Positions 14,930 to 62,600 of a stretch of DNA of 64,000 bases are shown in pieces. The stretch comes from Stegostoma tigrinum (taxonomy: Eukaryota). The stretch covers positions 4,506,497-4,570,496 of the forward strand of contig NC_081387.1 in NCBI RefSeq assembly GCF_030684315.1, given 5' to 3'. Made by a program: the position numbers and the translations under genes. How positions within the stretch are numbered: the first letter of the stretch is position 1; each line of letters starts with the position of its first letter. Below the pieces are notes generated by a model. That model worked only from the letters and a program-made list of their open reading frames with translations. It did not search any database and was not told the DNA's origin.

Positions 14930-15436
14930 AACCAGCTCCTAGTACACTCAGAACGCAACCAGAGGAAATCAGTAAGAATCCTCAGACACTCTGCACCTGC
15001 CAAACCTTGCCTTCGCGTGTGCAGGAATAAACTATCAACAAACTCAGGCTGAAAATCAGGAGGGAAATGCTTCCAACAAACACACTCAATATTCAACACA
15101 CAGCTCCAGTCAAACAGTTCAGCACAAAGCACCGAGTAAACAGCTCTCTCAGCTGGATCTTCTCACAGCATAAGGGACATTTCCACCCCTGATTACCCAC
15201 AGGACAGTCAGACTGCCTGAAGATTGGTGTGGATATTATGGGATACAATTTGTATAAAAGCTGCTCCTTCACTCACCATCTCCTCACTTGGTTTTCAGTC
15301 CCTATAGGAAATGAACCAGCTCTGGAAGAGGAAGAGGAGAGAATGGGCAGAGTGGGTGGGCTCTCTGATTGACGTCTCTCACAGTCAATCCAAATATTTC
15401 TGCAGCAACATGAGTTTCCTGAAGCTTAGGAAACTG
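14930..15436 (-). promoter_or_regulatory. Shared promoter/exon-1 cassette, copy B
   Basis: Near-identical to four other copies; ATG 15279-15277 followed by gtgagt; CCAAT and ETS motifs mutated in this copy. Confidence 0.65.
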
Positions 15437-15499
15437 GTGAAGCTGATGAGAGAGTGAGAGACAAAGCAGAGGCAGGAGGAGAAGAAACATATACAAAAA

Positions 15500-16350
15500 T
15501 AGACAGAAAGGCAGGTTGCGAAAGAAATACAGTTTATAAAGAGATATGGATAGGTTTAGTAAGTGGGCAAAGGTTGGCAAATGAGACATAATTTGACAAA
15601 ATGAGAAGTTGTTCATTTTGGAGGGGAGAATAAAATAACAGAATATTATTTAATTGGAGGTAAACTGCAGAAACCTGCAACACAAAGGGAGTTGTATATT
15701 GAACACAGAGAGCTAGAATTCTGGTACAGCAGATAATCAGGGAGGCTAATGGAATGTTAACCCTAATTTCAAGACAGTTAGAGTATAAGGATAGGAAAAT
15801 CTCACTGTGACTTTACAATGTGCTGGTGAGACCACAGCTGGACTACTGTGAGCAGTTTTGTCCCCCTTATTTAAGAAAATATATTATTTCATTGCACGTA
15901 GTTCAGAGAAGGTTCACGCAGATGATCCTTGGTATGGGGGAGTTATTTTATGGGAAAAGTTAAACGAATTGGGACGCATTGTAATTTAGAAGAATGAGAG
16001 GTGATCTTATTGAAACATACAGGCATCTTCAAAGGCTTAACATGGTAAATACTAAGAGGATGTTTTCCCTTATGGAAGAGTATCAGAGTGCATCATCTCA
16101 GAATAAACAAGCACCAATTTACAACTGAGATGGGGAGGAATTTCTTCTTGAAGAGGGTTATATGTCTTTAGAACTCCTTGCTACAGAGAACTGTGGAGGC
16201 AGAGTCCTTGTGTATGTTGAAGGCAAAGATGGATTCATGGTCAATCGGGGAATCAAAGGTTACAGTCAAATCAGCCACGATCCTATAGAATAGCAGAGCA
16301 GGATCAACAGGCCAAATGGCCTACTGCTGTTCTGACTTCTTCTGGTTTTA
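15500..16350 (+). mobile_element. Degenerate CR1 3' fragment
   Basis: Homologous to the RT C-terminus and 3' UTR of 20250-22249 and 40920-41950. Confidence 0.8.
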
Positions 16351-17149
16351 GAGAAGAGACTGAGGAATGCTGTAGACCTCGCACTTAGAGAGCTTTTCCG
16401 TGACTCCTGCTGCAGTCTTTCCAATCAAAGGTTACCTCTTTATGTAATAATGATGCAGGAGATCTAAAGTTGTTGATATGAAATAAAATGCCATATCGAT
16501 TTGAAAGGAAGAGTAACACTCAACTCCAGTTAGATGTGCCAATCAAAATACCATTCAAGATGTCAAGCATATCTTCAATGCAACATTTTCCTCCACTGAA
16601 GCTATAAGGTGTCTCTTCCACAGCAAGTTTCCATTCAGTTCATGTCTGAGGTCTTTGTTGCATTGCAATACAGAGAAAGGATGAAGTTTAAACCTTGGAT
16701 GCATTGGTCTGGACAGTGAGAGGACACAATAAGACCATGTGATGGACAATGAGAGCCATAACATTTTATTGAGTACTAATTTGAGGACGTTCTTTCGTGC
16801 TTTTCAGCAGCCTATAGGGCATCAATGTCAATGGTACAAAGCAGTGCTGGCAGATCCTCTGGTGAATCTTGTTCAATAGAACTGAGTTGTGTGAAGTCAC
16901 TTTTCTGTAATTCTTCTGATGCTGCAGAGGACAGTATCTCCTGAGAAATCTGTAGATTGTAACGTTAAATTTGCTGTGTCAGCTGAAATTAGAAAACATA
17001 TCTGAGCCTGCTATTATGAAAGGTCAATCTGTTGGATGGCACATAGTCATTAGAAGATCACTAGACATTGTCCTAGTGTATTTTTTAAACAGATAACTGT
17101 GTTTCAATTAAGTGTTGCAACTGAGTCGGTGATGAACTGAACAAGTAAT

Positions 17150-18479: not shown

Positions 18480-21400
18480 CAGTGCAGTAGATGTGGGTTG
18501 ACAATTTGTCAGAAAAAAAACCAAAGTTAAGGAAAGTATGAATTAGAATGGGAGAAGTGGTATAGTGGGTTAGGATGTGAAAGTGAGCAGTGTGCTGTGC
18601 AACCCAGTGTGCCTTGCTCCCGAATGGCATGGAGCCAAAGGTCAAACCACTCAATGAACCAAAGCTGACAGGGAATGTGGATTCTGAGAGTGAGGCTTAT
18701 CTCTATACTGTAGAAGGAGTATGGGAAAATTAGGGCTACGTGCAAGTAGGCATACACCCAGAGGGTGTGGACAGCTCAGGCTTGGTGGTGAAAGGGGAAA
18801 TAAGACCGGGTGTGAAGCTGCCCTCAACTCTGAATGCCCAGAAGGCTGATCTGGCAGTAACAGCCCTTGTGTTCACTCCACTCACAGGAATTTCCCATGC
18901 CCTGTTCAAGTACCTGGCCTCTGGCTATATGGGGCCAGGGAAAGTTCTCATAATGTATACTTTGAATGATTTTGGAGATGTTCAACGAGAACCTTACGTA
19001 AAAGCTCACACATAAGCTGCTCTATGCTCTATGTTCTATGAAGTCTGGTGGAAGGGCAATAATAGAGCTGATGGATTGGCCAGAGAGGAGCTGACAGGGG
19101 TAATCCATGGGATCCCAGTGATTCAGGGACAGTGGAAGCCATAATGAGTGAGGATGGAGCAATGTTCATGTCCTTCCCCGGACTCTGATAGAGGTCCAGC
19201 ACAAAAACCCAGTTTTAAAAGGTATCGTTGAGAGAAAGCAGGGAGAGAAATGATTTGAAAGGACCCTAGCAGCCTAGTGATTTAGCAGTGAAGAAAAGTG
19301 TGCTATTCAAAGGGAACAAGAGGCTGGTGTCTGAGGGTTACCAATAGGATTTCATGTATTCAGCCCATGGAGGCCTCAGGGCAGGATGGCCAGGAAGTGA
19401 GGGAACCTGGGATTATATTAGACAGGTGGTATGGGGCTTAGGAATGTGGATGTGGAGGCCCATGTGAAAGGATATTTGGACTGTCGCCAGAATAAAACAG
19501 AACAGGAAAATCGTGTTGGGAGTTACCAGACAGCTGGAAGGGCCGTGTTGGTCTATACAGATCAACTTTATTGGTCTTTTGTCTGTGACTTAAAGAGGGA
19601 ACAAGTATTACCTGCTTCCAGGAGATAATCTCACAAAATGGCTGGGAGGATTTCCCCAGTAGGTTAGACTCAGCTGTGTGGATCCTGGTAAAGGAAATGT
19701 TTTCAAGTGGGATTCGCCTGAAGTAATGGAATGAGATCAGGGAAGTTATTTTACAGGACAGGTAATGCAAACCACCTGTTGAGGACAGAGGGTAAATGGC
19801 ATGTATCCCATATTGTGCTAATTTTTTGAGAATAGTGGAGCACATGAACAAGGACCATTACAATGAGCCTACAGAACAATCTTGTGGGTCAACCTTAGAA
19901 ATAGGATGATTTGTTTCCACGGCCCGCATGAATATATGGGGACAGATATTGATGTGGACCGATTACTCTGATGAGTGAGTAACAGGCTGCTGCAGAGCCC
20001 TTCACGCCTCCTGACACTGACATTGTACGCCAACAGCAGTTGACACAGAGATGAACAAACATCAATTTTCTCATGATCTATGGCTATGGCTGTAGCGATT
20101 GTACAGACAAGAAGCCGGTGACATTGGGAACAGACACTAGTCAAATAAAGTGTTGCTGATGCCAATAGAAACACAGAAGTGTGATATTGGGGACCAGGTG
20201 ATAGAACTATGCAAGGGGTGGGAGTGCTTAAGCCCTTTTATTATATTATCCCTGACTAAGGAAGTCAGAGATAGCAGAAAAGCAAAAGAAAAAGCATATA
20301 ATGTGGTGAAGAGCAGTGGGAAACCAGAGGACTGGGAAGCTTACAAAGACCAACAGAGGGCAACAGGAAGAGAAATAAGGAGGGAGAAGATTAAATAGGA
20401 GGGTAAGCTAGCCAGTGATGTAAATGAAGACTGTAAGAGTTTCTTTAGATATATAAAGGGCAAAAGAGAGGCAAAAGTGGACATTGAACCACTGGAAAAT
20501 GATAGTGGAGAGATGGTAGTGGGGAACAAGGAAATGGCCGAGGAACTGAATAATTACTTTGCATCAGTCTTCATGGTGGAAGACACGAGTAATATCCTGA
20601 AACTTCAAGAGAGTCAGGAAGCAGAACTGAGTATGGTGGCCATCACCAAGAAAAAGGTGCTAGTAAAACTGACTAGTCTGAAGGTGGACAAATTAACCTG
20701 GACCAGATGGACTACACCCCAGGATTCTAAAGGAAATAACTGAAGAGATAGTGGAAGCATTAGTGGTGATCTTTCAGGAATCACTAGAGTCAGGAAGGGT
20801 CCTAGAAGACTGGAAAATCGCAAACGTGATACCCCTGTTTAAAAAGGGAGTAAGGCAAGAGACAGAAAATTACGGGCTGATTAGCCTAACCTCAGTCATG
20901 GGTAAGATTTAGGAGTCTATTGTAAAGGATGAGATTGCTGAATATTTGGAAGGGTAAAGTAAAATAGGGCAAAGTCAGCATGGTTTCATCAAGGGGAGGT
21001 CATGCCTGACAAATTTGCTAGAATTCTTTGAGGAAGTAATGAGTAGGGTAGACGAAGGAGAGCCAATGGATGTTATCTACCTGGACTTCAAGAAGGCCTT
21101 TGATAAAGTGCCACACAGGAGGCTTCTGAGTAAGATAAGGGTGTTAGAGGCAAGGTGCTAGCATGGTTAGAAGATTGGCTGTCTGGCAGAAAGCAGAGAG
21201 TGGGGATAAAGGGTCTTTCTCAGGATGGCAGCCAGTGACAAGTAGTCTTCCGCAAGGGTCAGTGCTGGAACACAACTTTTCACTTTATACATTAATGATC
21301 TAGATGAAGGAACTGTGTGTATTCTTGCTAAGTTTGCAGACAATACAAAGATAGGTGGACGGGCAGGTAGAATTGAGGAGGTGGTAAGGCTGCAGAAGGA

Positions 21401-27050: not shown

Positions 27051-27310
27051 GGCCATTACAGTCTAATGGAGGGCCAATACAGTCTAATAAAGGGCTGTTA
27101 CAGCCTAATATATTGCCATTTCAGTCTAATAGAGGGCCATTACAGTCTAATAAATCACCAGTACAGTATAATAACTTGCCATTAGTCTAACAAATCACCT
27201 TTGCAGTCTAATAAAGGTCCAGTGTAGTCTAATATACTGCCACTATAAAGTCTAATAAACGGCTATTGCAGTCTAACAAAGGACAAAACTAGCTTATGAA
27301 GGGCCATTGA
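27051..27310. repeat. 21-bp minisatellite, about 12 degenerate units
   Basis: Unit approximately ggccattacagtctaataaag. Confidence 0.85.
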
Positions 27311-28460: not shown

Positions 28461-29672
28461 TCAGTGCACACCCACACTTGAAGCTTTCGTCTGCATATGG
28501 ATTTGTTTGTGTTGGCAAAGGTTTGTTAACTTCGAGAATGATTTCTGGCACATCTCACATGTGAATGGTCTCTCCACTGTGTGAATGCGCCGGTGAATCA
28601 CCAGGGCTGAAGACTGCGCAAAGCCCCTATTACATATCTCACATATGAAGGGTTTTTCCCCTGTATGAACCCTATGATGTATCAAGAGCCTCTTAGAAGT
28701 CACAAAAGTTTGATCACAAACTTCACACTTGAAGAGTTTCTGCCCTGTGTGGATCGTCTGATGAACCAGGAGGTTCGATAATCGTGTAAAAGCTTTGTGA
28801 CACATCTTGCATATAAACAGTTTCACCCCCATATGAATGTGTTGGTGTATGTGGAGATTTGATGACTGCAAGAATGATTTGTCACACACCTTGCAGGTGA
28901 ATGATTTCTCTCCTGTGTGAACACATTGGCGTCTATAGAGATTCCATGACTCTGAAAACGATGTGCCACAAACCTTGCATGTGAATGGTTTCTCATCAGT
29001 CTGAATCTGTTGATGTTTTACTTGGTCTAATAATTGTCCAAATCCCTCCTTACGCACTTCGCACTTGAGGAGATTCTCCCTGGTGTGGAGTTTATGATGC
29101 CGCAGGAGGTGAGATGATTGTCCAAAGGCTCGGTCACACACTTCACATTTGAAGGGCTTCTCCCCTGTGTGAATCCTCTGATGCATCAGGAGATGGGAGG
29201 ATTGGATGAAGGCCTTCTCACAAACTTCACAGCGAAAAGGTTTCTCTCCTGTGTGAATCTTCTGGTGTCTCAGCAGCCTTGTAGATGTCACAAAAGCTTT
29301 ATCACAAACCTCACATTTGAAGGGTTTCTCCCCTGTATGGATTGTCTGATGGACCACAAGGTTTGATGACAGTGTGAATGATTTGTTACATACCTCACAG
29401 GTAAATGGTTTCTCCCCTGTATGGATGCGTTGGTGCACACGGAGGTTCGACGACTGCGAAAATGATTTGTCACACACCTCGCACGTGAATGGTTTTTCCC
29501 CTGTGTGAATACGCTGGTGAACGAGGAGGGCCGATGACTTTGAGAAGGACTTATTACACACTTCACATCTGATGGGTTCTTTCCCGGTGTACGTGTGTTT
29601 GTTTCTCACAACTATAGATGACTGCATAAAATCCTGATCCTGCATCTCACTCTGAAACGGTTTTACTTCCAT
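28461..29672 (-). CDS. ZNF unit C: ZF-only C2H2 protein, ~403 aa, 11 intact plus 3 degenerate fingers
   Basis: Tandem CxxC-x12-HxxxH with TGEKPF linkers; ATG 29672 (MEVKPF) matches paralog starts; acceptor at 30130-30131. Confidence 0.88.
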   Translation of the reverse strand: MEVKPFQSEMQDQDFMQSSIVVRNKHTYTGKEPIRCEVCNKSFSKSSALLVHQRIHTGEKPFTCEVCDKSFSQSSNLRVHQRIHTGEKPFTCEVCNKSFTLSSNLVVHQTIHTGEKPFKCEVCDKAFVTSTRLLRHQKIHTGEKPFRCEVCEKAFIQSSHLLMHQRIHTGEKPFKCEVCDRAFGQSSHLLRHHKLHTRENLLKCEVRKEGFGQLLDQVKHQQIQTDEKPFTCKVCGTSFSESWNLYRRQCVHTGEKSFTCKVCDKSFLQSSNLHIHQHIHMGVKLFICKMCHKAFTRLSNLLVHQTIHTGQKLFKCEVCDQTFVTSKRLLIHHRVHTGEKPFICEICNRGFAQSSALVIHRRIHTVERPFTCEMCQKSFSKLTNLCQHKQIHMQTKASSVGVH

Positions 29673-31869
29673 GTGGCTGATCAAGGATGTATCTTGTATA
29701 TTAGAAGATCTTATAAGCCTGTGCAGATCTCTTCACACACTTCACACTTGACAGCTTCTCCCTCTTAGGACTGAGTCAGTGGTTCATGAGGCTCGATGAA
29801 TGATTGAAGCTCTCCCCACTCTTGGATCCCATTTACACTTCTTCCCAGCCTCACCCTGACCGATCATCCACAGCCGAACCTTCAGAAAGGTTAGTTCTGA
29901 TGGAAGGCTCCACGCTATGGTCTAGTTTCAGACCTGATGATATGTCCAAGCTTTCCTGACCCAACTGATTTCCAAATGATGGTTTCACCAACCTTCCCTG
30001 TGTTGAGCAATGCTGTGAAGGGACTGGATGTTTTCCTATGGTTATGCAGCTGTTCCTTGGATGATGGTCAGGATCGATCTGCACTGTCTATCCTCTCTGT
30101 ATTCCCTGGTGTAAAATGGTGCAATCCTTCTGTAAAACAGGAAAAGGAAACATGATTTCATCCAACTCCCTCTCCTCCTTCACTGAAGGGATTGACTCCT
30201 CAGTGAGAGGCTGTTCCATAGTCTGCTATTTCCCATGTGTGTTTGGTTGTGTGTATTGGGAAGGGAAAGGGGGGTGGGGTTTGGATATAGGCCTCAATCT
30301 CACAGACCCATACAGTCATACAGCACGGAAAGAGACCCTTCGGTCCAACTAGCTCATTGCGAACATAATCTCAAACTAAACGAGTTCCACCTGCCTGCTC
30401 CTGGCCAGTATCCTTCCAAACCTTTCCAATTCAGGTTCAATTACTGTACTGGCTGAAGTAACCCTGCAGTTAAACACTGACAGTGTTTTCACTCAAGTAA
30501 CACCTGCTGCCTATGGCCAATGGCAACTTTCACTTCACTGTAACTGCAGCACATGGACCGTAACAGTTCGAGAAGGCAACTCATCATCACCTTCTCAAAG
30601 GCAATGAAGGACAGTAATAAACACTTGCCTCATCAGGGGTGCTCACATAAGTGAACATATATTAAAAAAAATGTGCATTTTTGCAAATGAGGATAAGATA
30701 TATTCAGATTTAACTTCTTGTATTCCCACAACAATCCAATAAACCTCTTAAGATTGGCTGTCAGTTATTTGTTTTTAAGCAAAAATACCCAGTTTCTTTA
30801 CAGCCTTGCACGCAAATTCTTGGCTCGAAGAATTCACAAGAACACCATACAACATAATCAGACAAATCCTCCAGCTCATTGTCCATTTGCAGCCTTAATG
30901 AATCCTGTTTGACATTGTTGGATATGTTGAGCTTCGGATCTACTAAAACCCCTGGGTCTTTTACAGTGTCATTCTTAACAATTTCAACTTAATTCAGACA
31001 ATGTGTGTGTCATTTGTTTTTGCATTTTCTTTGCAGTACTAAACGTGCTTTCAATTATTGCCAAATCACAGACCTTGTTTACAGTCTAAGGATTGGATTA
31101 CAATTGTCCAGTTTCATTTCAATTTGAATCTCCACATGCGGCAAAGAAAGGAGATTTCTATCTCCCCTTTCATTTTCCTTCCTTGGCTGTCACATGCCCT
31201 GCATTTCCAGCAGGGACATTGTCTGTTCTTGGTTACCATCCAAAGTACTATTTTCTTTTCCTCTGCTCAGCCCCTATCTTCCCCAGGCATCAGGAGGGCA
31301 ATGGACTAGACAACTCGGTGGAGTGTAAAGCAGGCTATTGTTTCACTGTGAGCTCATATCATGCTGGCAAAGTCCAGTTTCATCCTTAGAGTATGGGTAT
31401 AATATAAAAAGCACTCAGGTGAAATGTCAATTTCAGCATGTTTACCAAAAATGACTTGAAGAAAACCCATACAAAGCGGAAGGAAACACAAGAACCCATG
31501 AAAGTATTGCTTCAGTATAGTTGATTGAAGCATTTGGGTTTGTCCTCGGAAATTAGTAGCAATAAGTACAGATAGGATCAAACTTAAAAAAAAAGCATAC
31601 AACTGCATAAAGATGGGTGGCAGGCCAGAAGATTAGTCAGAATGTAAAAACCAACAGAGAGTAACCAGAATTTTAATTAGATCGGGAAAAATAAGAGTGA
31701 GTGAAAGCTAGCTAAAAACACAAAACAGATAGTAAGATTTTGTAGTGATATTTGAAAAGAGAACATTGGTCATATAGGAAGTGAGTCTCAGGAATTGTGG
31801 AAAATCAATAGATGACAAATCAATGTAACTAACATTTCACTGTGACGGAGACAAATAACAACACAGAAA

Positions 31870-33661: not shown

Positions 33662-34029
33662 GTTTCATGAAAGGAAAATCATGTTTGAGCAATTTATTTG
33701 ACTTTTTGAAGAATCCATCTGCTATGGATAAAAAGGGCAGCTATTGAGAACTGTTCTGGAGCTCTGAAGAAGGGTCACTGAACCGGAAGTGTTAACGCTG
33801 CTTTCTCTCCACAGATATACCAGATCTGAAGTTTCTCCAGCAAATCTTTCTGATTGCTGCATATTAATTTTCAACATCTCGTCGAGGTGGAATGCTTAAA
33901 TTAATTTTTTTTAAATTCTGGAGGAGAATATGCAGGGTGTTGGGAGGTCCCAGAGGGATTTGAAATGACGAGAAACATCCAGATCCCAAAACAAAGAGAA
34001 TTGACTATTCGTGGTTCACACGTTAATAA

Positions 34030-34545
34030 GCAGCTCCTAACACAAACAGAACTCAACACCAGGGAATCAGTAAGAATCCTCAGACCCTCTGCACCTCCCA
34101 CGTAATTACACCTCACCTTCTCATATTCAGGAAAAAACCATCAACAAAACTCAGGCTGGAAATCAGGAGGGAAATGTTTCCAATAAACACACTCAATATC
34201 CAACACACAGCTCCAGTCAAACAGTTCAGCACAAAGCACCGAGTAAACAGCTCTCTCAGCCGGATCTTCTCACACAGCATAAGGGACATTTCCACCCCTG
34301 ATTACCCACAGGACAGTCAGACTGCCTGAAGACTGGTGTGGATATTATGGGATACAATTTGTATAAAAGCTGCTCCTTCACTCACCATCTCCTCACTTGG
34401 TTTTCAGTCCCTATAGGAAGTGAACCAGCTCTGGAAGAGGAAGAGGAGAGAATGGGCAGAGTGGGTGGGCTCTCTGATTGACGTCTCTCACAGCCAATCC
34501 AAATATTTCTGCAGCAACATGAGTTTCCTGAAGCTTGTGAAACTG
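34030..34545 (-). promoter_or_regulatory. Shared promoter/exon-1 cassette, copy C
   Basis: CCAAT (cagccaatcc), tgacgtc, aggaagtg motifs; ATG 34388-34386 followed by gtgagt. Confidence 0.7.
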
Positions 34546-37500
34546 ACCGGTGAGATGGAGGTGACTTTGAGCAGTAGATCAGGTGGAGATTTAAACTTTT
34601 CATTGTCCCATCTCTATAAAACCTCACTTATTGCTGCTGCTGTCTCAGTTCTCACTCCAGCAGCACTGTGGATCTACCTACGTTAAACCACAGAAGTGAT
34701 ACAATGCATAGGGAGCCATTTGGTCTGTCGTACCTCCATGAGCCTGTCAAAGTAGCATGATTATGTAGATTTAGAAAAAAGGAAATCATGCTTGACAAAT
34801 CTACGGCAATTCTTTGAGGATGTAACTTGGAGTTGATCAGAGGGAGCCAATGGATGTGCTTCATTTGGACTTTCAGTTGGCTTCCAATGAAGTCTCACAT
34901 GACAGTAATGAGTAAAAATTAAAGGTATTAGGATTAGGCGTTTTGCACTGACATAGATAGAAAATTGTCTGCCAAGCAGGAAACAAAGAGTGGGAATATA
35001 TGGATCCTTTTCTGAATGGCAGGCAGTGACTAATTGGTCCAATTATACAAGCAGGGATCGTATACTCGGGCTGCAGCTATTCACAGTATATGTTCATTAT
35101 TTAGATGTGGAAACTATATATAGCAGAATTTGCAGATGATACAAAGCTGGATGGATTGCTGAACTTTGAGGAAGATATGAAGATGTTGCATTGTGATTTG
35201 GACAGGCTGAGTGAATAGCCAAATGCATGGCAGGTATAATGTTGATAAATATGATGTTATCACTTTGGTAGCAAAAGTAGGAAGAGATATTATTTGGATG
35301 CCTGGAAACTGGAAGAGCGGCATGTTCAATGAGACCTGTATATTCACAGGAGGTCAAAGACGTCCTTAGAGAGCTTTATAAAATCATCAAGGGTAATAGA
35401 TAACATTTCGGCAAGATTTGTTTCCTTAGAGTGGGGGATTTCAATACAAGGGGACATATTTCTAAAGTGAGAGGAGGCCACACCTGGAAATAACGTGTGC
35501 AGCTTTGATCTTTTTATCTGAGGAACAAAATTTTTGCCATAGAGGTGGTGCAACGAAGCTTTACCACTTTGATTCCGAGGCTGCATAACAGACATATGAG
35601 GAGTGATTGAGTCAGTTAGGATTGCATTCACTGGAGTTTGTCAGAATGAGGGAGGCATCTTCCCAACAACAATGTACCCTAAACCAGTCCTCTCTTGATT
35701 CAATGCTGATCTGGAGATCATTCTTCCAGCCAAACAGTATCAGTCATGGCTTTTATTTTATGTTAAACATTTGATTCACAGGATAGCAAAAGTGCAGCAT
35801 GTATCCCAACTACAAACCTACGTGCACACCTTTATTCATTTCTTACATTACAGTATTCATACTGAATGAAAGACCCCAACTTCAAATTAAGACTTTACAC
35901 CAATAAGCTTTGTACAGTACAATTTAAGAAATTAAGCCTTGTTAATTACACTATAATTTTAGAAAAGACCACTTCAAAAAACAAAATATTACAGAACTGC
36001 ACTGGGGTCCATTTAACAAAGAATAAACTTGAAAAGCAGAATAATTCTGTTGAAATTGTCTAGAACCTCGTGCGGGCCATTGTGCACAGTTCTGGTCTTC
36101 ATATTGAGAAGGACATCAAGGAAGTGGAGAAGATATAAAACCGTTGACTACGATGAGCATTAAGAGATTGTAACTGTAAAAAAGACTGAACAGGCCAGCA
36201 CTCTTCCTTCAGAAATGACTGGGCTGAGGAAATAGAAATCCCTAAAATGATGAAATATTAAATTATGAATGTTGGGGGAAAATGGAGAGATGTTTCCACT
36301 CATGTGGAGGAGTTCAATAGCAGGATCCATCAGTATAAAATGGTGATTAATAAATCCAAGGAGAAACTCAGGACCAACTCCATCATGAACAGAAGGATGA
36401 GAATGTTGAGCTTGCTGCCACAGGGAACAGTTGAGAAAATAGCTCAGGTGCATTTGACAGGAATCTTGGTAAGTCCATGAGGGAAAAAGGAATAAAAGGA
36501 TTTGCTGACAGGGTGAAATAAATTAGGGAGGGAAAATGGAACTGGGTTGAATGGACTTTATCTGTGCTTTAAAACATAAAATGAAAACAAATCAATGCTG
36601 GAACTTTTCAGCAGGTCAGGCAGCATCTCTCTTGAGAAACTGAGTTCATGTTTCAGCTCAAGATCACCCTTAATCAGAAATCATGCTGGATACTGGTCAG
36701 CACCTCCTTTTGTGACAGAACATTCCCTATTCTCATCAGCACTGCCCCTACTCCTGTTCCCATCAACTGCCCCTTCTCAATTTTCCATATGGAGTTTAAA
36801 CTTGGATCACTCTCAAACATTTACTTCCAATGACATCAAGGTCACATGAACATGACAAGTTAACGTGTGTGAAAAGTATTGATCCAATATTCCCCATTTC
36901 ATACATCTGTTGTTAACAATTTGCAGACTATTGGTTGCAAGTTACTGCTCACATATAGTCAATAAAGAAAATTATCACACATGAAAAAAAATTGTTTGTT
37001 CTTTCTCGTCCATTCCGGTTTTGTCCATCCAAACTCATGCACTGCTTTCAATATTTAAAATACTATGGTCTTCTTATTGCACTCATATGTGTTGTTGTTG
37101 GCTGTTCATTCAGTGTCTGCTGGTTCCTGAGGTGTCACTAACTTTGCAGAATATTATTATCATTGCAAGTGTTGTTGCCACGGTAATTATCACTGCTGAC
37201 GTTTTGTATTTTTGGGGGGAATGGTTGTCCTGTGGGACAGATAGTCATTTTGTTCTTTGCTCAGTCGGTGAAATTGGATCTGCCTCATCAGTTTTCTTCT
37301 GCAGAACGGCTGACTTTCTGATTTCGTGCAATGTCTGTTGTTGAGGCGATAGATCTGGCCTTTCACTTTCCCCAGGTATGATCAAGCTGACAATTTCCTT
37401 CTAAATTTCAAGTTGCCAAAGGATCTGATACTTGTCGAATGCAATGAATGTTTGCATCAATCAGCTCTGAATGATTTGGTCTCTTTACAAAATGTGAGAT

Positions 37501-38260
37501 GGACTTTTGTTTCACTTGAAGGTATCACTTCCTCCTGTTACTTCTTCCAGTCTTGCTTGTATTTTCGTTACAGCAGGAGTTCCTAGGTGAGATTAGACTA
37601 GACCGTTAGCCATTCCATCAGGAGATGTGTTTCTCCTCTCTCAGGTTGCCTTGTACACATCTCAACTGGATGAAGTCAATTTTTGATAATTCCTGTGGCA
37701 ATTTCTGCTACTACATCAGCCTGCATGACTGGAGATGGTGTGGAAATGAAATGTGCTGTTGAATTTCCTGATTATTAGTAAGTGTCAAATTTTTCACTCA
37801 TGAATTGACGTAATTGTCACTATCACAATCTCAGGAATGTGTGACGGCTGAAGTGTGCTTTCAGATATTCAACAATGACTGGGTGAATTGATGATTTCCA
37901 GACCAAGTCATGTTACTGCTTCTTGTTGAATTTGGAATATTTCAAAATATGTATCAGCATTAACTTCAGTCAGAGACAGTGCAGCTCCAGATAGCACATT
38001 GCTGATGCACATCTCCTGTCCTTCACTTCCCAGTGATATCTCCGTGCATGAAGCAACACTTGCAAACACTTTGGAGGGGATCAAAGTAGTTTGAGAAAGA
38101 TGCCGTTAATCATGTTTTGGTCAGATGTTACTTTTTCTTTTCCTCTCTCCAAAAGAGGGAATGGTTGAAAAGTTCACAAGCAAAGACAATATCTAGGCTC
38201 TCTCTCAATCTGTGCACATTGTTACTCAGTGTGTGTTAACACTGTGAATACAAACCCAAC
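34040..38260 (+). repeat. Segmental duplication, copy 1 (paralog 43850-48890)
   Basis: Colinear homology; paired spurious ORFs such as 36595/47217 and 37021/47643. Confidence 0.92.
37000..38230 (-). mobile_element. Gypsy-like integrase fossil (duplicated at ~47630-48850)
   Basis: Minus strand reads approximately VEYLKAHFSRH-IPEIV-SDN-QFMSE, an integrase core motif, with frameshifts. Confidence 0.55.
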
Positions 38261-38729: not shown

Positions 38730-39581
38730 CTAATCCCCTGTGTGGAGTCTCCAATGGAGCAGGAGGTTGTATGACCTTGAGAACGATTTGTTACATGTCT
38801 CACACTTAAACGGTTTCTCCCCTGTGTGAATGCGTTGGTGTGTACAGAGTTGAGAAGATGTCGAGAATGATTTGTCACATCCATCACAGGTAAATGGCTT
38901 CTCCCCTGTGTGAAAGCGTCGGTGGATGCGAAGTGCTGATGACTGCGAGAATGATTTATCACATGTCTCACAGGAAAATGGTTTCTCCCCTGTGTGAATG
39001 CGTTGGTGCTTGCGCAGAGTTGATGAATCGTAGAATGATTTATTACACACCTCACACGTAAATGGTTTCTCCCCTGTGTGAATGCGTTGGTGTACGCGAA
39101 GATGTGATGAATTTGAGAATGCTTTGTTGCACACTTCACATGTGAATGGCTTCTCTCCTGTGTGTATGCGTTGGTGTACTTGGAGGCGCGATGATACTGA
39201 GAATGATTTGCTACAAACCTTGCATGTGAATGGTTTGTCCCTTGTGTGAATCGTCTGATGGAGCAGGAGTCTTGATGAGTCAGAGAATGATTTGTCACAC
39301 ACCTCACACTTAAACAGTTTCTCTCCTGTGTGGATGCGTTGATGTTTCCAGAGATTCTCTGACCATGAGAATGCTTTGTCACATACCTTACATATGAATG
39401 GTCTCTCCTGTGTGTGAATGCGTTGGTGTTTATAGAAGGTTGATAATCTCAGAAATGATTTTTTACACACTTTGCACGTGAATGGCTTTTCCCCAGTATG
39501 AATGCGTAGGTGATTCACAAGCATTGATGACTTGGTAAAAGCTCGGTCACAAACCTCACACTTAAACGGTTTCTCTTCCAT
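38730..39581 (-). CDS. ZNF unit D: ZF-only C2H2 protein, 283 aa, 10 fingers
   Basis: Ten intact fingers from MEEKPF; acceptor at 40020-40021. Confidence 0.9.
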   Translation of the reverse strand: MEEKPFKCEVCDRAFTKSSMLVNHLRIHTGEKPFTCKVCKKSFLRLSTFYKHQRIHTQERPFICKVCDKAFSWSENLWKHQRIHTGEKLFKCEVCDKSFSDSSRLLLHQTIHTRDKPFTCKVCSKSFSVSSRLQVHQRIHTGEKPFTCEVCNKAFSNSSHLRVHQRIHTGEKPFTCEVCNKSFYDSSTLRKHQRIHTGEKPFSCETCDKSFSQSSALRIHRRFHTGEKPFTCDGCDKSFSTSSQLCTHQRIHTGEKPFKCETCNKSFSRSYNLLLHWRLHTGD

Positions 39582-40217
39582 GTAGCTGTCTGTGTGTTAA
39601 CAGTGTTTCTAACAGATGCACCTTATCCTATGAGCCTGCAGAATTCTCTTTCAACACCTCACACCTGAACAGCCTGCAGGGATGAATCACTGGGTCATGA
39701 GACTCAATGATGATTGAAGCTCTCACTGCTCTTGGAAACCACTCACACTTCTTATCCAGCCTCACCTTGACCAGTCACCCACAGATAAACATTTGGGAAG
39801 GTTAGGCTCCTCACCACTGACCATTTTCAGATCAGATGATTTGCTAAACCTCCCCTCACGCAACTGATTTCCACATAATGATTTCACTCTCTAGTGTCGA
39901 GCAATGCTGCGATAGGACTGGATATCTTCCCACACTTAAGCAGTTGTTCCTTGATTGAATGTCAGAATTTATCTGTGTTGTCTGTCCTCTCTGTATTCTG
40001 GTAGTATGGAGAAATCCTTCTGTAAAACAGGAAAAAGAAACATGATTTCCTCCAACCCCCTCTTCTTCTTTGCTGAACAGGCTGACTCTTTTGATATACT
40101 TTCATGTCATGTGGGCATCAGTTTGCAGGCCAACATTTATCATTGTGCCTGCAATTTGTTGTAGATGCTGGAATCTGTACTGAAAACAAAAACTGCTGGA
40201 ATTCATGGCAGGACAGG

Positions 40218-42772: not shown

Positions 42773-42829
42773 GAGAAATTGTTGTGATCTCTGTATCTTA
42801 ATTAATTAAGACAGTTTTGAATTACTTAC

Positions 42830-43816: not shown

Positions 43817-44368
43817 TGACCATTCACAGTCCACAGGATAAGAACCAGCTCCCCACACACATACAGAACTCAACACCAGGGAATCAGTAAGAATCCTCAG
43901 ATACTCTGCACCTCCCAGAGAATTACACCTTACCTTCTCATATTCGGGAATGAACCATCAATAAAACTCAGGCTGGAAATCAGGAGGGAAATGTTTCCAA
44001 TAAACACACTCAATATCCAACACACAGCTACAGTCAAACAGTTCAGTACAAAGCACCGAGTAAACAGCTCTCTCAGCTGGATCTTCTCACACAGCATAAG
44101 GGACATTTCCACCCCTGATTACCCACAGGACAGTCAGACTGCCTGAAGACTGGTGTGGATATTATGGGATACAATTTGTATAAAAGCTGCTCCTTCACTC
44201 ACCATCTCCTCACTTGGTTTTCAGTCCCTATAGGAAGTGAACCAGCTCTGGAAGAGGAAGAGGAAGAGGAGAGAATGGGCAGAGTGGGTGGGCTCTCTGA
44301 TTGACGTCTCTCACAGCCAATCCAAATATTTCTGCAGCAACATGAGTTTCCTGAAGCTTGTGAAACTG
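43817..44368 (-). promoter_or_regulatory. Shared promoter/exon-1 cassette, copy D
   Basis: As copy C; ATG 44205-44203 followed by gtgagt; one extra gaggaa unit. Confidence 0.7.
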
Positions 44369-44826
44369 ACCGGTGAGATGGAGGTGACTTTGAGCAGTAG
44401 ATCAGGTGGAGATTTAAACTTTTCATTGTCCCATCTCTATAAAACCTCACTTATTGCTGCTGCTGTCTCAGTTCTCACTCCAGCAGCACTGTGGATCTAC
44501 CTACGTTAAACCACAGAAGTGATACAATGCATAGGGAGCCATTTGGTCTGTCGTACCTCCATGAGCCTGTCAAAGTAGCATGATTATGTAGATTTAGAAA
44601 AAAGGAAATCATGCTTGACAAATCTACGGCAATTCTTTGAGGATGTAACTTGGAGTTGATCAGAGGGAGCCAGTGGATGTGCTTCATTTGGACTTCCAGT
44701 TGGCTTCCAACGAAGTCTCACATAAGACAGTAATGAGTAAAAATTAAAGGTATTAGGATTAGGCGTTCTGCACTGACATAGATAGAAAATTGTCTGCCAG
44801 ACAGGAAACAAAGAGTAGGAATATAT

Positions 44827-46693: not shown

Positions 46694-46723
46694 AACGTTT
46701 CAGGTCCGGTGATCCTTCCTCAG
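46694..46723 (-). ncRNA. Hammerhead-like motif in a short PLE fragment
   Basis: Minus strand CTGAGGA-a-ggatc(accg)gacct-GAAA-cgtt; imperfect helix II. Confidence 0.55.
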
Positions 46724-49232: not shown

Positions 49233-50183
49233 CTAACACCGGAACAGTTTCTCCCTTGTGTGAACACGTTGGTGCTTGCGGAGGGTTGATGACTGTGAAA
49301 ACGATTTATCACATACCTCGCATGTGAAGGGTTTCTCCCCGGTGTGAACCCTCTGATGGAGCAGGAGGTATGATGACCTCGAGAATGATTTCTCACATAC
49401 CTCACACTTGAATGGTTTCTCCCCGGTGTGAATGCGTTGGTGCACGAGCAGTGTTGACGACTGCGGGAATGACTTAGTGCATACCTCGCACGTGAAGGGC
49501 TTCTCTCCTGTGTGAACAGGCCGATGATTGACAAGGCCTGACAATTGTGCAAAATCCTGGTGACATACCTGACACTTGAATGGTTTCTCCCCTGTGTGAA
49601 TACGTCGGTGTGCATGGAGGTTTTGTGACCGTGAGAATGATTTGTTACACACCTCACACGTAAATGGTCTCTCCCCTGTGTGAACACGCTGGTGTTTATG
49701 GAGGGTAGATGACTGCGTGAATGATCTGTCACACACATCACATACAAATGGTTTCTCTCCTGTGTGAATCCTGTGATGCAGCAGGAGTCTTGATGAGTCT
49801 GAGAATGATTTTTCACACACCTCACACTTGAACAGTTTCTCTCCTGTGTGGATGCGTTGATGTGTGCGGAGGATCCCTGATTGGGAGAATGATTTCTCAC
49901 ACACCTCACACATGAAAGGTTTCTCTCCAGTGTGACTACGGTGGTGTCGGCGGAGGGTTGATGACTGCAAGAATGATTTGTCACATATCTCACACGTGAA
50001 GGGTTTCTGTCCCGTGTGAATCGCCCGGTGATTTACGAGGCCTGATAACTGTGCAAAGCCCTTGTTACACACCTCACACTTGAACGGTTTCTCTCCAGTG
50101 TGAATACGTCGATGATTTGTGAGTGTCACTGATCTTGCAAAACCTTGGTCACACACTTCACATTTGAAGGGTTTCTCTTCCAT
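49233..50183 (-). CDS. ZNF unit E: ZF-only C2H2 protein, 316 aa, 11 fingers
   Basis: Eleven intact fingers from MEEKPF; acceptor at 50669-50670. Confidence 0.9.
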   Translation of the reverse strand: MEEKPFKCEVCDQGFARSVTLTNHRRIHTGEKPFKCEVCNKGFAQLSGLVNHRAIHTGQKPFTCEICDKSFLQSSTLRRHHRSHTGEKPFMCEVCEKSFSQSGILRTHQRIHTGEKLFKCEVCEKSFSDSSRLLLHHRIHTGEKPFVCDVCDRSFTQSSTLHKHQRVHTGERPFTCEVCNKSFSRSQNLHAHRRIHTGEKPFKCQVCHQDFAQLSGLVNHRPVHTGEKPFTCEVCTKSFPQSSTLLVHQRIHTGEKPFKCEVCEKSFSRSSYLLLHQRVHTGEKPFTCEVCDKSFSQSSTLRKHQRVHTREKLFRC

Positions 50184-51086
50184 GTAGCTTCCCTTCTGCT
50201 AACAGATTGTATAATAGACGCACCTAGTCACTGAGACAATGTTTGGAGCCTGTGGAGCTCTCCTCATTCACCTTACTGTTGGAACAACCTCTCCCCTGTA
50301 GGAATGACTCAGTGGGTCTTGAGACTTGACGAATGGCTGAAGCTGTCACCACACTTGGAGCCACTCACACTTCTTCCCAGCCTCACCCTGACTGATCACC
50401 CACAGCCGAACCTTCAGAAAGGTTGGTTCTATGGAAGGCTCCACACCACTGACCAGTTTCAGATCTGATGATGTCAAAGCTCCCTGATCTGACTGATTTC
50501 CAGATACTGGTTTCACTGCCCCGCCTTCTCTGTGTTGAGCAATGCTGTGAAGGGACTGGATGTCTTCCCACAGTCGTGCAGTTGTTCCTTGGATGTACAT
50601 CTATAGTCAGCATCTATCTGCAGTAACTATCCTCACTGTATTCTCTGGCACAGTGCGGCATAATCCTTCTGTAAAACAGGAAAAGGAAACATGATTTCCA
50701 CAAACTCTCTCTCCTCCTTTGCTGAAAGGGCTGACTCTTCAGTTAGAGACTGTTCCACAGTGAGTGCCAGTCTGCTATTCTCCTGTGTGGGGTATCAGTT
50801 AGGAATTCAGCAGGTCAGGTGGCACTTGTGGAGAGAAAAATAACTAACATTTCAAGTCTAGAGAATCATTTTCAGTTTCCAATGTACAAGGGAGATAGTG
50901 AGAGAGAGAGCTGACACCAGATACAATAGTGCAAGGAGACAGACGGACAGACAGAGAGAGAGAGAGCAGAAAAGAGGGAGAGAGGGGGAGTAGACCACAA
51001 CATGAGGAAGCTGGAAGAAGTCTGAAAGTGACTTCACAGAAATATTGAGAGTTGATTAGTTGTTGAGCAACTACATTAGAGGCTGT

Positions 51087-52420: not shown

Positions 52421-53389
52421 CAGAAAGTAAAAACAGGATTCACAATTTGTGTACTTAATGCACTGACCAATAAGACAAGCATATCAAATGCCTTCTTAAT
52501 ATCTTATCTACCTGCGCCTCTTCTTTGAAGGAATTCTGCATCTTCCTCATAGATCACCCTCCCACCCAGCTTTGATCATCTCCAAACTTGGAGATATTTC
52601 ATTCAGTTCCCTCAACAAAATCATTAATTTATAATGTGAACAGATGGGGGCCAAGCACTGATCCGTTCCATACTGTGCCAATCGGAAAGTTACTGTCCCA
52701 CTCAGCAAAAAAACTGTTTTCTAAAATGATCTCTAGACTGCAAAGGTTACATTACCAGGAGAGATTAAACAAACTTACATTATATTTCATAGGGTTTAGA
52801 AGCTTATGGATGATCTGATCAAAGATTTTGAAATATTAAGAGTTAGAGATCTGTTGAATGGAGGGAAAGTCTAGGACCGGGATCATTATCTAAAAATTAG
52901 AGGCAGATATTTTGGGGGTGAAATAAGGAAACACAATACACGCAAAGAGTGGGAGATGATTGGACCTCTCTTTCATGAACCACAATTGATGCTAAATTAA
53001 AAGCTGACATTGAAACTGAAATGAAATAGAGGCCTGGAGGCAAATGGGTAGTGTCCCTGCTCTGAGCCAGAAGGTCCAGATTCATATTCCACCTGCCCTG
53101 GAGAGGAGTCAAGTTATGTCTCTGCAGGTGACTGCTAATGATTTTTAAATGAGAGATTCATTCTTTTATTGTTCACTGAAAGTTGAAAGGGACATGGGGA
53201 AAGGGCAGGAATACAGAGTTATATCACAGATGCACCATGATCTCACTGAATACTGGGACATACTACAGACACAAAGTGTCACAGCCTGAATCGATACACT
53301 GTTTCTCAGAAGAGGCAGCTCTCTCTCAATGTTCTGATAGGGCAACCTTTGATCAGAGAAACTGTATAAATTATATTCCACGGGATAAT

Positions 53390-53909
53390 TAATAACCAGC
53401 TCCCAACACACACCACTCAACACCGGGAAATCAGTAAGAATCCTCACACACTCTGCTCCTCCCAGATAATTACACCTCACCTTCTCATATTCAGGAATGA
53501 TCCATCAACAAAACTCAGGCTGGAAATCAGGAGGGAAATGTTTCCAATAAACACACTCAATATCCAACACACAGCTCCAGTCAAACAGTTCAGCACAAAG
53601 CACCGAGTAAACAGCTCTCTCAGCTGGATCTTCTCACACAGCATAAGGGACATTTCCACCCCTGATTACCCACAGGACAGTCAGACTGCCTGAAGATTGG
53701 TGTGGATATTATGGGATACAATTTGTATAAAAGCTGCTCCTTCACTCACCATCTCCTCACTTGGCTTTCAGTCCCTATAGGAAGTGAACCAGCTCTGGAA
53801 GAGGAAGAGGATAGAATGGGCAGAGTGGGTGGGCTCTCTGATTGACGTCTCTCACAGCCAATCCAGATATTTCTGCAGCAACGTGAATTTCCGGAAGCTT
53901 GGGAAATTG
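53390..53909 (-). promoter_or_regulatory. Shared promoter/exon-1 cassette, copy E
   Basis: ATG 53752-53750 followed by gtgagt; CCAAT, CRE-like and ETS motifs intact. Confidence 0.7.
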
Positions 53910-54014
53910 GTAGGTTACTCTGACTCCTTCCTGACCGGCTTCCTCAATGTCCAAGTGTCCAAAAGGGAGCAATGAATTACATTTCCTTACAGTTCTGTGT
54001 CCATAACAGATAGA

Positions 54015-55900: not shown

Positions 55901-55929
55901 ATTACCGTTGACTATTTGGTGACCTATAG

Positions 55930-59230: not shown

Positions 59231-60433
59231 AGTTGGACCTTTTGCTTCCTGCCTTCTGGGTATTACAATAGAAAACTCAGAATTCCACAGTAAGTTTCTG
59301 TCCATAATATACTGGTCAATGTCACTGTTGGCTGGGATACCTGCTGTATCAATGGGTTTATAATTTCCAGTTCAAAAGAAGCAGAATGTTTTCCAAAGGA
59401 AGAAAGACATATATTTACATAACAACTGTCACAAAAGTGCTTTACAACTCATTAAACACAGTCACTTTTTTGTGCACAGCAAGTTTTCATTACCTGCAAG
59501 GTTATTATGAATAGATAATATTCAAATGTTTTTGTGCCACCGATTTTCAGATCGATTCTCGCTTGCTACTGTCTTTGTTCTGGGATCTTGTAACTGTGAC
59601 AGGCAGTAAAGTCCTCAGTGTCAAGGAGAAGTGAAATTGATGGAGAACAGTGAGTCGACTCCAAAAGTGTGGAACAACCTAAATAGAGGATCCTGATATC
59701 CAGCAAAAACCAAAACATCCTAAATCCCACTGGCTCAGAACAACTATCTACTGTCAGAAAATCTCTGTTATCGGTATTGCTCAGTCAGACAGAGGCACAG
59801 TGCATTCTCCCACCAATAGATGTGCTGTGGCTGGAGGGATCCCAGTTTGCTCAGTCCTTATCCCAAATCACCATTCAATGACAATAAGGTCAGTAAAACA
59901 GGAGAGTCTTCACACTGATGTGTGTGTGTGTGACCTGGGTTAATCCAACACCCAGGGACAGTTGAGATGGAATGACTCTGTGTATCTCATCTCCCTAGCT
60001 ATTAACCTCCCTGCTCAGGGAAATAAGACTGAAACAATCCCATTAGCTGCCTCTGCCACTTCCCTCTCTTCCACTAATCCCCTGGACAAACATCAATTAA
60101 TGCTTCTCCAGCCCAAACCCTGAACGCACATAATTTTATAGTCTCTATCGATATGCTCTCTCTGAGCTTTTCTTCTCGAAGAAACATATGACCCATATCC
60201 CTCCTTGCTGTGCATGTGCTGATCCCTCTACTGCACATTATCGCTGCCTTGGATGCTGTGGGCCTTCCGCTTCTAATCTGCTGTCAAACACATACAAGGA
60301 TACACATCCCAGGCTGATGTTGTCGTTTGAAAGCCTCTGAGGATGAAGAGTGCTATTCCCACACTAGAAATCTCTGTCAAACATTTACCAGGGAACAGAG
60401 ATAGCAGCTGCAATAGGTGAGAGAGAGAGAGAG

Positions 60434-61975
60434 AGATAATGGGAACCGCAAATGCTGGAGAATCCAAGGTAATAAAATGTGACGCTGGATGAACACAGCA
60501 GGACAAGCAGCATCTCAGGACCACAAAAGCTGACGTTTCGGGCCTAGACCCTTCATCAGAGAGGGGGATGGGGAGAGGGAACTGGAATAAATAGGGAGAG
60601 AGGGGGAGGCGGACCAAAGATGGAGAGAAAAGAAGATAGGTGGAGAGGAGAGTATAGGTGGGGAGGCAGGGAGGGGATAGGTCAGTCCAGGGAAGACAGA
60701 CAGGTCAAGGAGGTGGGATGAGGTTAGTAGGTAGGAAATGGAGGTGCGGCTTGAGGTGGAAGGAAGAGATGGGTGAGAGGAAGAACAGGTTAGGGAGGCG
60801 GAGACAGGCTGGGCTGGTTTTGGGATGCAGTGGGGGGAAGGGACGAGCTGGGCTGGTAGTGTGATGCAGTGGGGGGAGGGGATGAACTGGGCTGGTTTTG
60901 GGATGCGGTGGGGGAAGGGGAGATTTTGAAGCTTGTGAAGTCCACATTGATACCATTGGGCTGCAGGGTTCCCAAGACACTGCAGGAGGCCCATGATGGA
61001 CATGTCGTCTAAAGAATGGGAGGGGGAGTTAAAATGGTTTGCGACTGGGAGGTGCAGTTGTTTATTGCGAACCGAGCAGAGGTGTTCTGCAAAGCGGTCC
61101 CCAAGCCTCCGCTTGGTTTCCCCAATGTAGAGGAAGCCACACCGGGTACAATGGATACAATATACCACATTGGCAGATGTGCAGGTGAACATCTGCTGAA
61201 TATGGAAAGTCATCTTGGGGCCTGGGATGGGGGTGAAGCAGGAGGTGTGGGGGCAAGTGTAGCACTTCCTGCGGTTGCCGGGGTAGGTGCCGGATGTGGT
61301 GGGGTTGGAGGGGAGTGTGGAGCGAATGAGGGAGTCACGGAGAGAGTGGTCTCTCCGGAAGGCAGACAAGGGTGGGGATGGAAAAATGTCTTGGGTGGTG
61401 GGGTCGGATTGTAGATGGCAGAAGTGTCGGAGGATGATGCGTTATATCTGGAGGTTGGTGGGGTGGTATGTGAGGACGAGGGGAATCCTCTTGGGGCGGT
61501 TGTGGCGGGGGCGGGGTGTGAGGGATGTGTTGCGGGAAATGCGGGAGACACGGTCAAGGGCGTTCTCGACCACTGTGGGGGGGAAAGTTGCGGTCCTTGA
61601 AGAACTTGGACATCTGGGATGTGTGGGAGTGGAATGCCTCATCGTGGGAGCAGATGTGGCGGAGGCGGAGGAATTGGGAATAGGGGATGGAATTTTTGCA
61701 GGAGGGTGGGTGGGAGGAGGTGTATTCTAGGTAGCTGTGGGAGTCGGTGGGCTTGTAATGGACATCAGTTACAAGCTGGTTGCCTGAGATGGAGGCTGAG
61801 AGGTCCAGGAAGGTGAGGGATGTGCTGGAGATGGCCCAGGTGAACTGAAGGTTGGGGTGGAAGATGTTGGCGAAGTGGATGAACTGTTCGAGCTCCTCTG
61901 GGGAGCAAGAGGCGGCGCCGATACAGTCATCAATGTACCGGAGGAGGAGGTGGGGTTTGGGGTCTGTGTAGGAAG
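60434..61975 (-). mobile_element. 5'-truncated Penelope-like element
   Basis: RT C-terminal/linker remnants and GIY-YIG (KCYTCPH...NVVYCIHCTRCGFLYIGETKRRLGDRFAEH) followed by terminal repeat. Confidence 0.92.
60532..60559 (-). ncRNA. Minimal hammerhead ribozyme
   Basis: Reverse complement is ctgatgaagggtctaggcccgaaacgtc. Confidence 0.75.
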
Positions 61976-62058
61976 AGGGAGGTTTTATTCAGATGGGACA
62001 ATGACAAGTTTAAATCTCCACCTGATCTGCTGCTCAAAGTCACCTCCATTTCACTGGT

Positions 62059-62600
62059 CAGTTTCCCAAGCTTCAGGAAACTCATGTTGCTGCAGAAATA
62101 TTTGGATTGGCTGTGAGAGACGTCAATCAGAGAGCCCACCCACTCTGCCCATTCTCTCCTCTTCCTCTTCCAGAGCTGGTTCACTTCCTTTAGGGACTGA
62201 AAACCAATTGAGGAGATGGTGAGTGAAGGAGCAGCTTTTATACAAATTGTATCCCATAATATCCACACCAATCTTCAGGCAGTCTGACTGTCCTGGGGGT
62301 AATCAGGGGTGGAAATGTCCCTTATGCTGTGTGAGAAGATCCAGCTGAGAGAGCTGTTTACTCAGTGCTTTGTGCTGAACTGTTTGACTGGAGCTGTGTG
62401 TTGGATATTGAGTGTGTTTATTGGAAGCATTTCCCTCCTGATTTCCAGCCTGAGTTTTGTTGATGGCTCATTCCTGAATATGAGAAGGTGAGGTGTAATT
62501 ATCTGGGAGGAGCAGAGTGTCTGAGGATTCTTACTGATTTCCTGTAGTTGAGCTCTGTGTATTTGGAGCTGGTTGTTATTTTTTGGACAGTGAATCGTCA
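62059..62600 (+). promoter_or_regulatory. Shared promoter/exon-1 cassette, copy F (its ZF exon presumably beyond the window)
   Basis: Dyad 62060-62082, gattggctg, gacgtcaatcag, cacttcct; ATG 62216-62218 followed by gtgagt; second donor-like site aag|gtgagg at 62487. Confidence 0.7.

Follow-up and report, generated by a model that had tools for sequence, protein, structure and literature searches.

The closest described counterpart of the locus studied here is the BGW element of the mammalian BEX/WEX/GASP genes at Xq22 (Winter and Ponting 2005, PMC1274310), for which 23 human homologues, a 57-base motif and a best match of 383 bases at 91% are given, with paralogues closer to one another than orthologues, a raised G+C content and no non-mammalian matches reported. 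A second counterpart is found in the ISX sites that serve dosage compensation in Drosophila miranda (Ellison and Bachtrog 2015, PMC4384637), and a third in the FiNZ-ZNF genes of zebrafish chromosome 4q and the KRAB-ZNF genes of tetrapods (Wells et al. 2023, PMC10547256), subsets of the FiNZ-ZNF genes having a common promoter architecture and expression wave. The present analysis concerns a 64,000-nucleotide window of the 3.2-Gb genome of Stegostoma tigrinum (contig NC_081387.1, hereafter C44; C44:4506497-4570496), which carries five copies of a non-coding 5' cassette belonging to genes for zinc-finger (ZF) proteins. No description of this element or of its cluster in sharks was found in the literature searched, subscription journals and supplements lying outside its scope.

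Judging from the description of BGW, the cassette may be regarded as its analogue. In both cases a non-coding element restricted to one cluster lies across the first 5' exon of genes with one diverged coding exon, appears to be homogenized through conversion between loci, separately from the coding region, occurs in mixed orientations and is also found as orphan and pseudogene copies; unlike BGW, the cassette has about 120 copies alike at about 97% over 340 bases, lies mostly in intron 1, is not G+C-rich, belongs to a C2H2 family and is nearly unchanged between organisms. The likeness to ISX lies in dozens of dispersed regulatory copies (77 in ISX) that have their variants pooled through non-allelic conversion, the pool being what selection acts on, but ISX is a young transposon in which conversion spreads a beneficial haplotype, whereas here there are no transposon ends, one copy per gene, an age greater than the species split and, it appears, purifying selection. 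We consider it probable, at roughly 0.8, that about a hundred two-exon, ZF-only genes on C44 possess a common 5' element, made up of a predicted promoter, a short exon 1 and 230-300 bases from the start of intron 1, which is kept uniform by gene conversion and held between species by purifying selection. Of this, the pairing of cassettes with arrays, the shape of the identity profile, the passage of variants from copy to copy and the slow change between organisms are observed.

In the window, self-BLAST and alignment located the five ~0.55-kb blocks where a preliminary description, made from the sequence alone, had placed them, with a near-identical centre and with ZF exons that are more diverged (~70% identical by self-BLAST). 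Cassette positions are counted from the A of ATG|GTGAGT (position 0, with minus values upstream), which lies at 15279, 34388, 44205 and 53752 on the minus strand and at 62216 on the plus strand. Cassettes c15 (14810..15438), c34 (33953..34628), c44 (43817..44451) and c53 (53387..53911), all on the minus strand, each lie upstream of, and co-oriented with, one of the ZF exons of genes B (broken), C, D and E, as had been described, and c62 (61976..62684, plus strand), which is head-to-head with c53, has its partner beyond the window, with a leader at C44:4573133 and 10 fingers at C44:4573615. In c15, a promoter-like region is followed by exon 1 ending in the ATG at 15279-15277 and by the start of intron 1; in c53, the ATG at 53752-53750 is followed by the donor GT at 53749 and by a second donor-like site at 53480. 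The exon-2 acceptors, TTTTACAG|AAGGAT, are present at 7300, 30129, 40019 and 50668, in agreement with the earlier positions. The block does not, as had been stated, end in ATG|gtgagt; the ATG|GT lies in its middle, and about two thirds of its core falls in intron 1. Pairwise identity among the five copies is 89-97% at -170 to 0, 97-99% at 0 to +150, 82-99% at +150 to +300 and 40-63% at +450 to +650. The motifs labelled, by consensus names, as putative CCAAT, CRE-like and ETS/initiator elements are conserved in 30, 38 and 43 of the 47 copies, respectively; the CCAAT box reads ATTGA in place of ATTGG in c15, as in 11 of the 47 copies.

Cassettes c34 and c44 agree at 567 of 570 bases over -340 to +230, a near-identity such as would be expected after a recent long conversion tract, and have about 4 kb of upstream flank in common (34002..38255, minus strand, 85-96% alike to 43817-48880 by self-BLAST), the similarity ending inside the cassette tail; genes C and D, further downstream, lie outside it. 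Besides this pair, young upstream-flank duplications (0.5-5 kb) ending in the cassette tail are seen at C44:4159398/4251828, 4419158/4889777 and 4032405/4101864; two flank-sharing pairs link opposite-strand genes 92 and 470 kb apart, and the only downstream flank duplication, C44:4588294/4611925, involves an orphan.

Beyond the window, the cassette is confined to one gene cluster. All 97 exact genome matches of a 26-mer across the donor lie at C44:1.55-4.89 Mb, and an intron-1 24-mer has 107 exact matches, 106 within 3.4 Mb of C44 and one on contig C38 (100 of the 107 were listed individually, the remaining seven being the seven found in the tile past the last listed place). The 32 exact acceptor matches are likewise all on C44; at the left edge, the cassettes begin at C44 1.5475 Mb, and fragments extend to 4.951 Mb. 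In the 1.26 Mb of the ~3.4-Mb cluster that was tiled, with arrays counted from two fingers upwards, there are 61 cassettes and 60 arrays; 54 of the cassettes contain the 24-mer without mismatch, and scaling by this proportion puts the family at about 120 copies. For 53 of the 61 cassettes, the next downstream array within 30 kb is co-oriented, against a mean of 21.6 and a maximum of 32 in 1000 random placements, so that the pairing is not due to chance; correspondingly, 53 of the 60 arrays have their own cassette, and eight cassettes have no partner. The proposal of one promoter/exon-1 element per ZF gene is thereby borne out, and the cassette is a non-coding, conserved first-exon element confined to one cluster, as is BGW, rather than a scattered young repeat. 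Neighbours occur in every orientation (18, 12, 15 and 15). Head-to-head cassette pairs 0.7-2.3 kb apart form near-perfect inverted repeats at C44:3716212/3717498, 4099594/4101864 and 4665283/4665951, and an inverted 75-base piece of the CCAAT/CRE part lies within intron 1 of two genes (C44:3717835 and 4019358).

The similarity among copies has the shape of a bell. In the 47 of 61 copies that are paired, have a recognized acceptor and show at most three mismatches in the anchor, the pairwise difference p is 0.009 at 0 to +50 and 0.03-0.04 over -100 to +200, and rises to 0.07-0.13 at -350 to -100 and 0.13-0.17 at +250 to +350; the ends of similarity are ragged, from -24 to -464 upstream and from +6 to +417 downstream. 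In the 39 best-kept copies, 240 of the 340 core columns (-110 to +230) are invariant, and p is 0.033 in the core versus 0.208 in the exon-2 leader, a divergence of 3.3% against 21%; an equal divergence of cassette and introns had been named in the preliminary description as counting against its reading. The nearest pair of leaders among the 47 copies is still 7.8% apart, cassette and leader distances are uncorrelated (Mantel r = 0.04, p = 0.40) and cassette distance has no relation to physical distance (rho -0.03). Recent duplication of whole genes is excluded by these diverged leaders and by a core distance unrelated to leader or position, which are also unlike what an inserted element would leave. 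The history of the 5' element is thus independent of that of the downstream coding exon, as the Mantel test and the escaped copy described below both show.

Between organisms, the core changes slowly. Four non-coding orthologous pieces from DNA of organism B differ from this genome at 133 of 2173 bases (6.1%), whereas, among the matches listed, cassette contigs differ from c53 at three of 231 bases in organism B and three of 197 in organism D. A simulation of neutral concerted evolution, which assumes the intron mutation rate, 20 copies and independent sites and is compared with two short contigs only, expects 17.7 and 20.6 differences (P ~1e-5 and 1e-6), so that selection likely acts besides conversion; longer organism B cassette contigs at 10% divergence exist and are probably decayed copies. 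Neutral conversion alone, started by a recombination or break hotspot at these promoters, with a core free of special constraint and possibly low in mutation rate, would account for a bell profile centred near the predicted start site and for young flank duplications ending in the cassette, four of them upstream and one downstream. Under it, however, orthologous divergence should follow the clock (PMC3924837), and about one fifth of that is observed. Moreover, a PRDM9-like gene is present at C53:4201628-4225010; it has a KRAB exon, SET-like exons and an array of eight fingers that are near-identical, with variation at contact positions. Such a gene would, by PMC5519329, direct meiotic breaks away from promoters, so that hotspots falling at promoters by default are not the first explanation to suggest itself; this explanation is accordingly judged improbable. 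Loss of PRDM9 as the cause of conversion was set aside on account of the same gene; a search for SSXRD gave no match anywhere, its controls likewise remaining without a match. Slow change between organisms is what would be expected from the theory that divergence at neutral sites stays clock-like despite conversion and that purifying selection gains in efficiency through it (PMC3924837), and the earlier alternative of uniformity by conversion or by selection should read conversion and selection.

Exchange between copies is recorded by the single exact match outside C44. This copy (C38:29042800-29043320) lacks the promoter half, starts exactly at the GT of the intron and has its other end where the 3' end of a repeat tail lies in intron 1 of the gene at C44:4206015, the repeat junction of which has only two matches genome-wide, in the C38 copy and in that gene, which is therefore the sole source. 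No convincing target-site duplication was found at the C38 copy. We infer that it is a retro-copy of an excised spliceosomal intron, which suggests that the intron RNA was present in the germ line. Two of ~237 gene-specific flank bases (one in a TG run) differ between the two sequences, as against 15 of 283 in the core (Fisher p = 0.005), and at eight of the 15 core differences both letters are carried by at least three other copies; the core has thus changed more than the flank, through variants of the family, which argues for gene conversion between copies. Full reshuffling within less than 1% of neutral divergence would put exchange, as a rough estimate, at least about 100 times faster than point mutation. 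The pair C44:4588294/4611925 repeats the inversion of core and flank (6/340 against 5/1000, p = 0.036), and the pair C44:4032405/4101864 shows 8/340 against 4/460, which is not significant (p = 0.14).

Variants common to paralogues point the same way. The majority letters of this genome are carried at +221 by 31 of 44 copies and at +233 by 30 of 41, whereas DNA contigs of organism B, among the matches listed, have the other letter at 2668/2668 (+221) and 4379/4690 (+233) of summed depth, a measure that is not copy number, since contigs drop rare variants. Both majority letters are rare in the contigs of organism C as well, and +74 and +211 point in the same direction, among the matches listed. 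The carriers are not clustered by leader, their leaders being 21% apart against a divergence of ~6% between this genome and organism B; species-specific variants are therefore common to paralogues, as far as contig depths among these matches go, as in BGW. The uniformity by gene conversion put forward earlier is thus backed both by the escaped copy and by the family-shared variants. A processed retrocopy of spliced mRNA was also considered and rejected, the one exact junction match (C47:22029275) having no flanking homology and being attributable to chance. Purifying selection alone, which without any exchange would hold the promoter and first intron of each gene close to an ancestral optimum, would explain the invariant core columns and a core more conserved between organisms than ZF coding sequence (in organism D, 3/197 in the cassette contig against 40/497 in a ZF contig for gene E, the nearest paralogue here being 77% alike); it is largely refuted by the parent and the escaped C38 copy, which differ at eight family-shared sites although their flanks are 99% identical, and is further opposed by letters common here yet nearly absent in organism B across genes older than the split, and by well-kept cassettes on broken genes, which leaves it highly improbable.

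An origin of the block as a young mobile element or solo LTR (long terminal repeat), repeatedly inserted and co-opted as a promoter, is scarcely credible: the high identity of dispersed copies in both orientations, the eight of 61 copies without a partner array and the copy on another contig would fit it, but there are no fixed ends, terminal repeats, target-site duplications or genome-wide dispersal (106 of 107 matches lie in one cluster), the position upstream of the leader is constant, an organism B contig (52611-53466) running from the gene E intron into the cassette tail shows that this copy predates the split, and the C38 copy starts at the intron GT without the promoter half.

Under the joint action of conversion and purifying selection, the following course of events may be envisaged. 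Selection would keep the core above ~95% identity, and the ~120 cores in 3.4 Mb, in both orientations, would donate to one another; the homology kept by selection would in principle be sufficient to initiate tracts. Tracts would spread outward and fade, which would give the bell profile with its ragged ends; the leaders and ZF exons, at 21-30% divergence, would have escaped conversion, and an occasional long tract would transfer upstream flank, kilobases in length, to another gene. Conversion would pool the copies into one large population in which weak purifying selection becomes effective (Mano and Innan, via PMC3924837), and the predicted outcome is one common on-switch, with a leader bearing an upstream open reading frame (uORF), for a diverse DNA-binding repertoire.

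Several results weigh against this reading, in addition to the assumptions of the simulation and the nature of contig depth stated above and of the run labels stated below. Broken and orphan cassettes are not significantly more diverged than intact ones (medians of 1.2%, n = 18, 2.1%, n = 8, and 1.0%, n = 35, respectively; p = 0.12), 'broken' being a crude class, so that selection is invisible copy by copy, although this is expected if conversion also repairs dead copies. Linkage disequilibrium does not discriminate (r2 0.04 and 97% four-gamete pairs at 14 non-CpG cassette sites; 0.03 and 91% in the leader control) and was dropped as a proof of conversion, the control being alike. Unlike BGW, the cassettes have neither G+C enrichment nor a weak-to-strong excess, with 43-52% G+C and one CpG per zone. 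The pair C44:4159398/4251828 has a middle zone diverged by 12%, which a single event does not explain. Finally, neither an Rfam match (best E = 0.51) nor unusual folding (z = 0.29) was found that would account for selection on the 230 intronic bases; the element does not qualify as a known structured non-coding RNA.

Use of the splice donor, as had been supposed, is supported by a spliced joint 53750-50592 with a GT end in two contigs of organism C (run X15) and one of organism B (X17), these being related organisms and the RNA label of runs X15, X17, X18 and X20 being the guess of the search tool; the start of the C38 copy at GT also fits donor use. A spliced first exon in the cassette is thus supported in the related organisms, and an RNA polymerase II promoter is predicted ahead of it. 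DNA carry-over, the sequence being multicopy, could account for the unspliced cassette contigs in the RNA-labelled runs, and run X24 left the cassette uncovered, which has no bearing on expression. The second donor-like site at +272 (AAG|GTGAGG) occurs in 22 of 47 copies, and one X18 contig, possibly from a diverged paralogue, departs at 53480, one base off it. Together, an acceptor-like site at +232 and the donor-like site at +272 (window 53481-53521, minus strand) would delimit an optional exon of 40 bases or else lengthen exon 1. The frame that reads through from the ATG is 23 codons long and is open in 45 of 47 copies.

Downstream, exon 2 consists of a non-coding leader followed by the ZF array. 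On the minus strand of the window, this exon spans 28461..30129 in gene C (open reading frame 29672-28461, 403 amino acids, 11 canonical fingers), 38730..40019 in gene D (39581-38730, 283 amino acids, 10 fingers) and 49233..50668 in gene E (50183-49233, 316 amino acids, 11 fingers), for which orthologue-like contigs exist in organisms B, C and D. Gene B (5851..7300) is likely a pseudogene, its C2H2 array containing stops and its frame from 6858 ending after 24 codons, and remnant A (982..1587, minus strand) retains a leader and one finger, with neither an acceptor nor its own cassette. The exon-1 ATG is an upstream ATG and not the start of the ZF frame: in the 49 genes with a recognizable acceptor, splicing to exon 2 gives a uORF of 3-56 codons, mostly 14, which reaches the fingers in none. 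The ZF frame usually starts at its own ATG, seven residues ahead of the first cysteine. The leader (~480 bases, for example window 50190-50668) contains two to four further upstream ATGs and a decayed finger-like 3' end, and translation of mRNAs with such leaders may be tightly limited. Elsewhere in the window, a degenerate 21-base tandem array of ~12 copies lies at 27039-27313, and introns and spacers contain what are presumably LINE-like reverse-transcriptase and GIY-YIG-type repeat remnants (9669-11889, 20309-22221, 40864-41918 and 60432-61441); the repeat types resemble shark LINEs.

The proteins are KRAB-less, as had been proposed. The three window frames have Pfam matches of zinc-finger type only; the one KRAB match in the genome is that in the PRDM9-like gene on C53, and two introns leave less than 170 bases outside the cassette and acceptor region as space for a KRAB exon. 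No KRAB exon thus lies upstream of the fingers. A homologue search returned generic C2H2 proteins at 39-59% identity, with no cartilaginous-fish name among the best 60 of 7939 scored candidates. Among 594 tandem C2H2 fingers with TGEKP linkers, 386 distinct fingerprints are found and variation is greatest at helix positions -1, 3 and 6 (entropy 3.2-3.4 bits), so that the arrays are variable where they had been expected to be. In 209 pairs of paralogous fingers chosen on non-contact similarity, the pN/pS ratio is ~0.8 at contact positions (pN 0.44, pS 0.55), not above 1, against 0.43 at other variable and 0.02 at structural positions, so that positive selection at contact residues is not shown; contact positions are relaxed or diversifying, adaptive change not being proven. 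Gene E differs from organism C at 21 of 713 coding and 24 of 368 flank bases. Thus, of the diversifying repertoire first envisaged, the contact-position variation stands, but a fast arms race is so far unsupported, given conserved gene E orthologues and a ratio of 0.8.

Like the FiNZ-ZNF and KRAB-ZNF genes, the present family forms a large lineage-specific C2H2 cluster amid repeats with contact-position variation, but those genes have an N-terminal effector and shown retroelement repression (PMC10547256), whereas in most of the genes here the frame opens only seven residues ahead of the first finger, is never joined by the exon-1 ATG and appears to be without an effector exon such as FiNZ. Surveillance of transposons by these ZF proteins would be an analogy with such systems, and no effector domain that could mediate repression is apparent. 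The cartilaginous-fish lineage is reported to be without KRAB families (PMC8455134).

In conclusion, the cluster shows how a large diversifying transcription-factor family could keep one common, predicted switch without recent duplication. With many copies, relatives at least 6% diverged and a dated escaped copy, it is an unusually clean natural test bed for the strengthening of purifying selection by conversion; the entire family would be within reach of a single guide RNA, probe or reporter, and at these promoters the mapping of short reads will not be reliable. A bolder view, which we regard as rather improbable, is that of a collectively owned promoter: around a hundred effector-less ZF genes would form one regulatory unit, conversion hundreds of times faster than point mutation would merge all copies into a single pool under selection, and the 5' element would for this reason be under stronger constraint than the proteins. 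The 5' portion of intron 1 would have a function of its own, the cassette would act as the exchange point through which genes acquire new upstream flanks, and the whole would serve genome surveillance in cartilaginous fishes lacking KRAB-ZNF genes. If this is true, the functional part of intron 1 would act either as a binding platform or, as hinted by the GT-to-tail retrocopy, as a stable germ-line RNA of the excised intron, and the family would constitute a system with a constant switch and variable readers.

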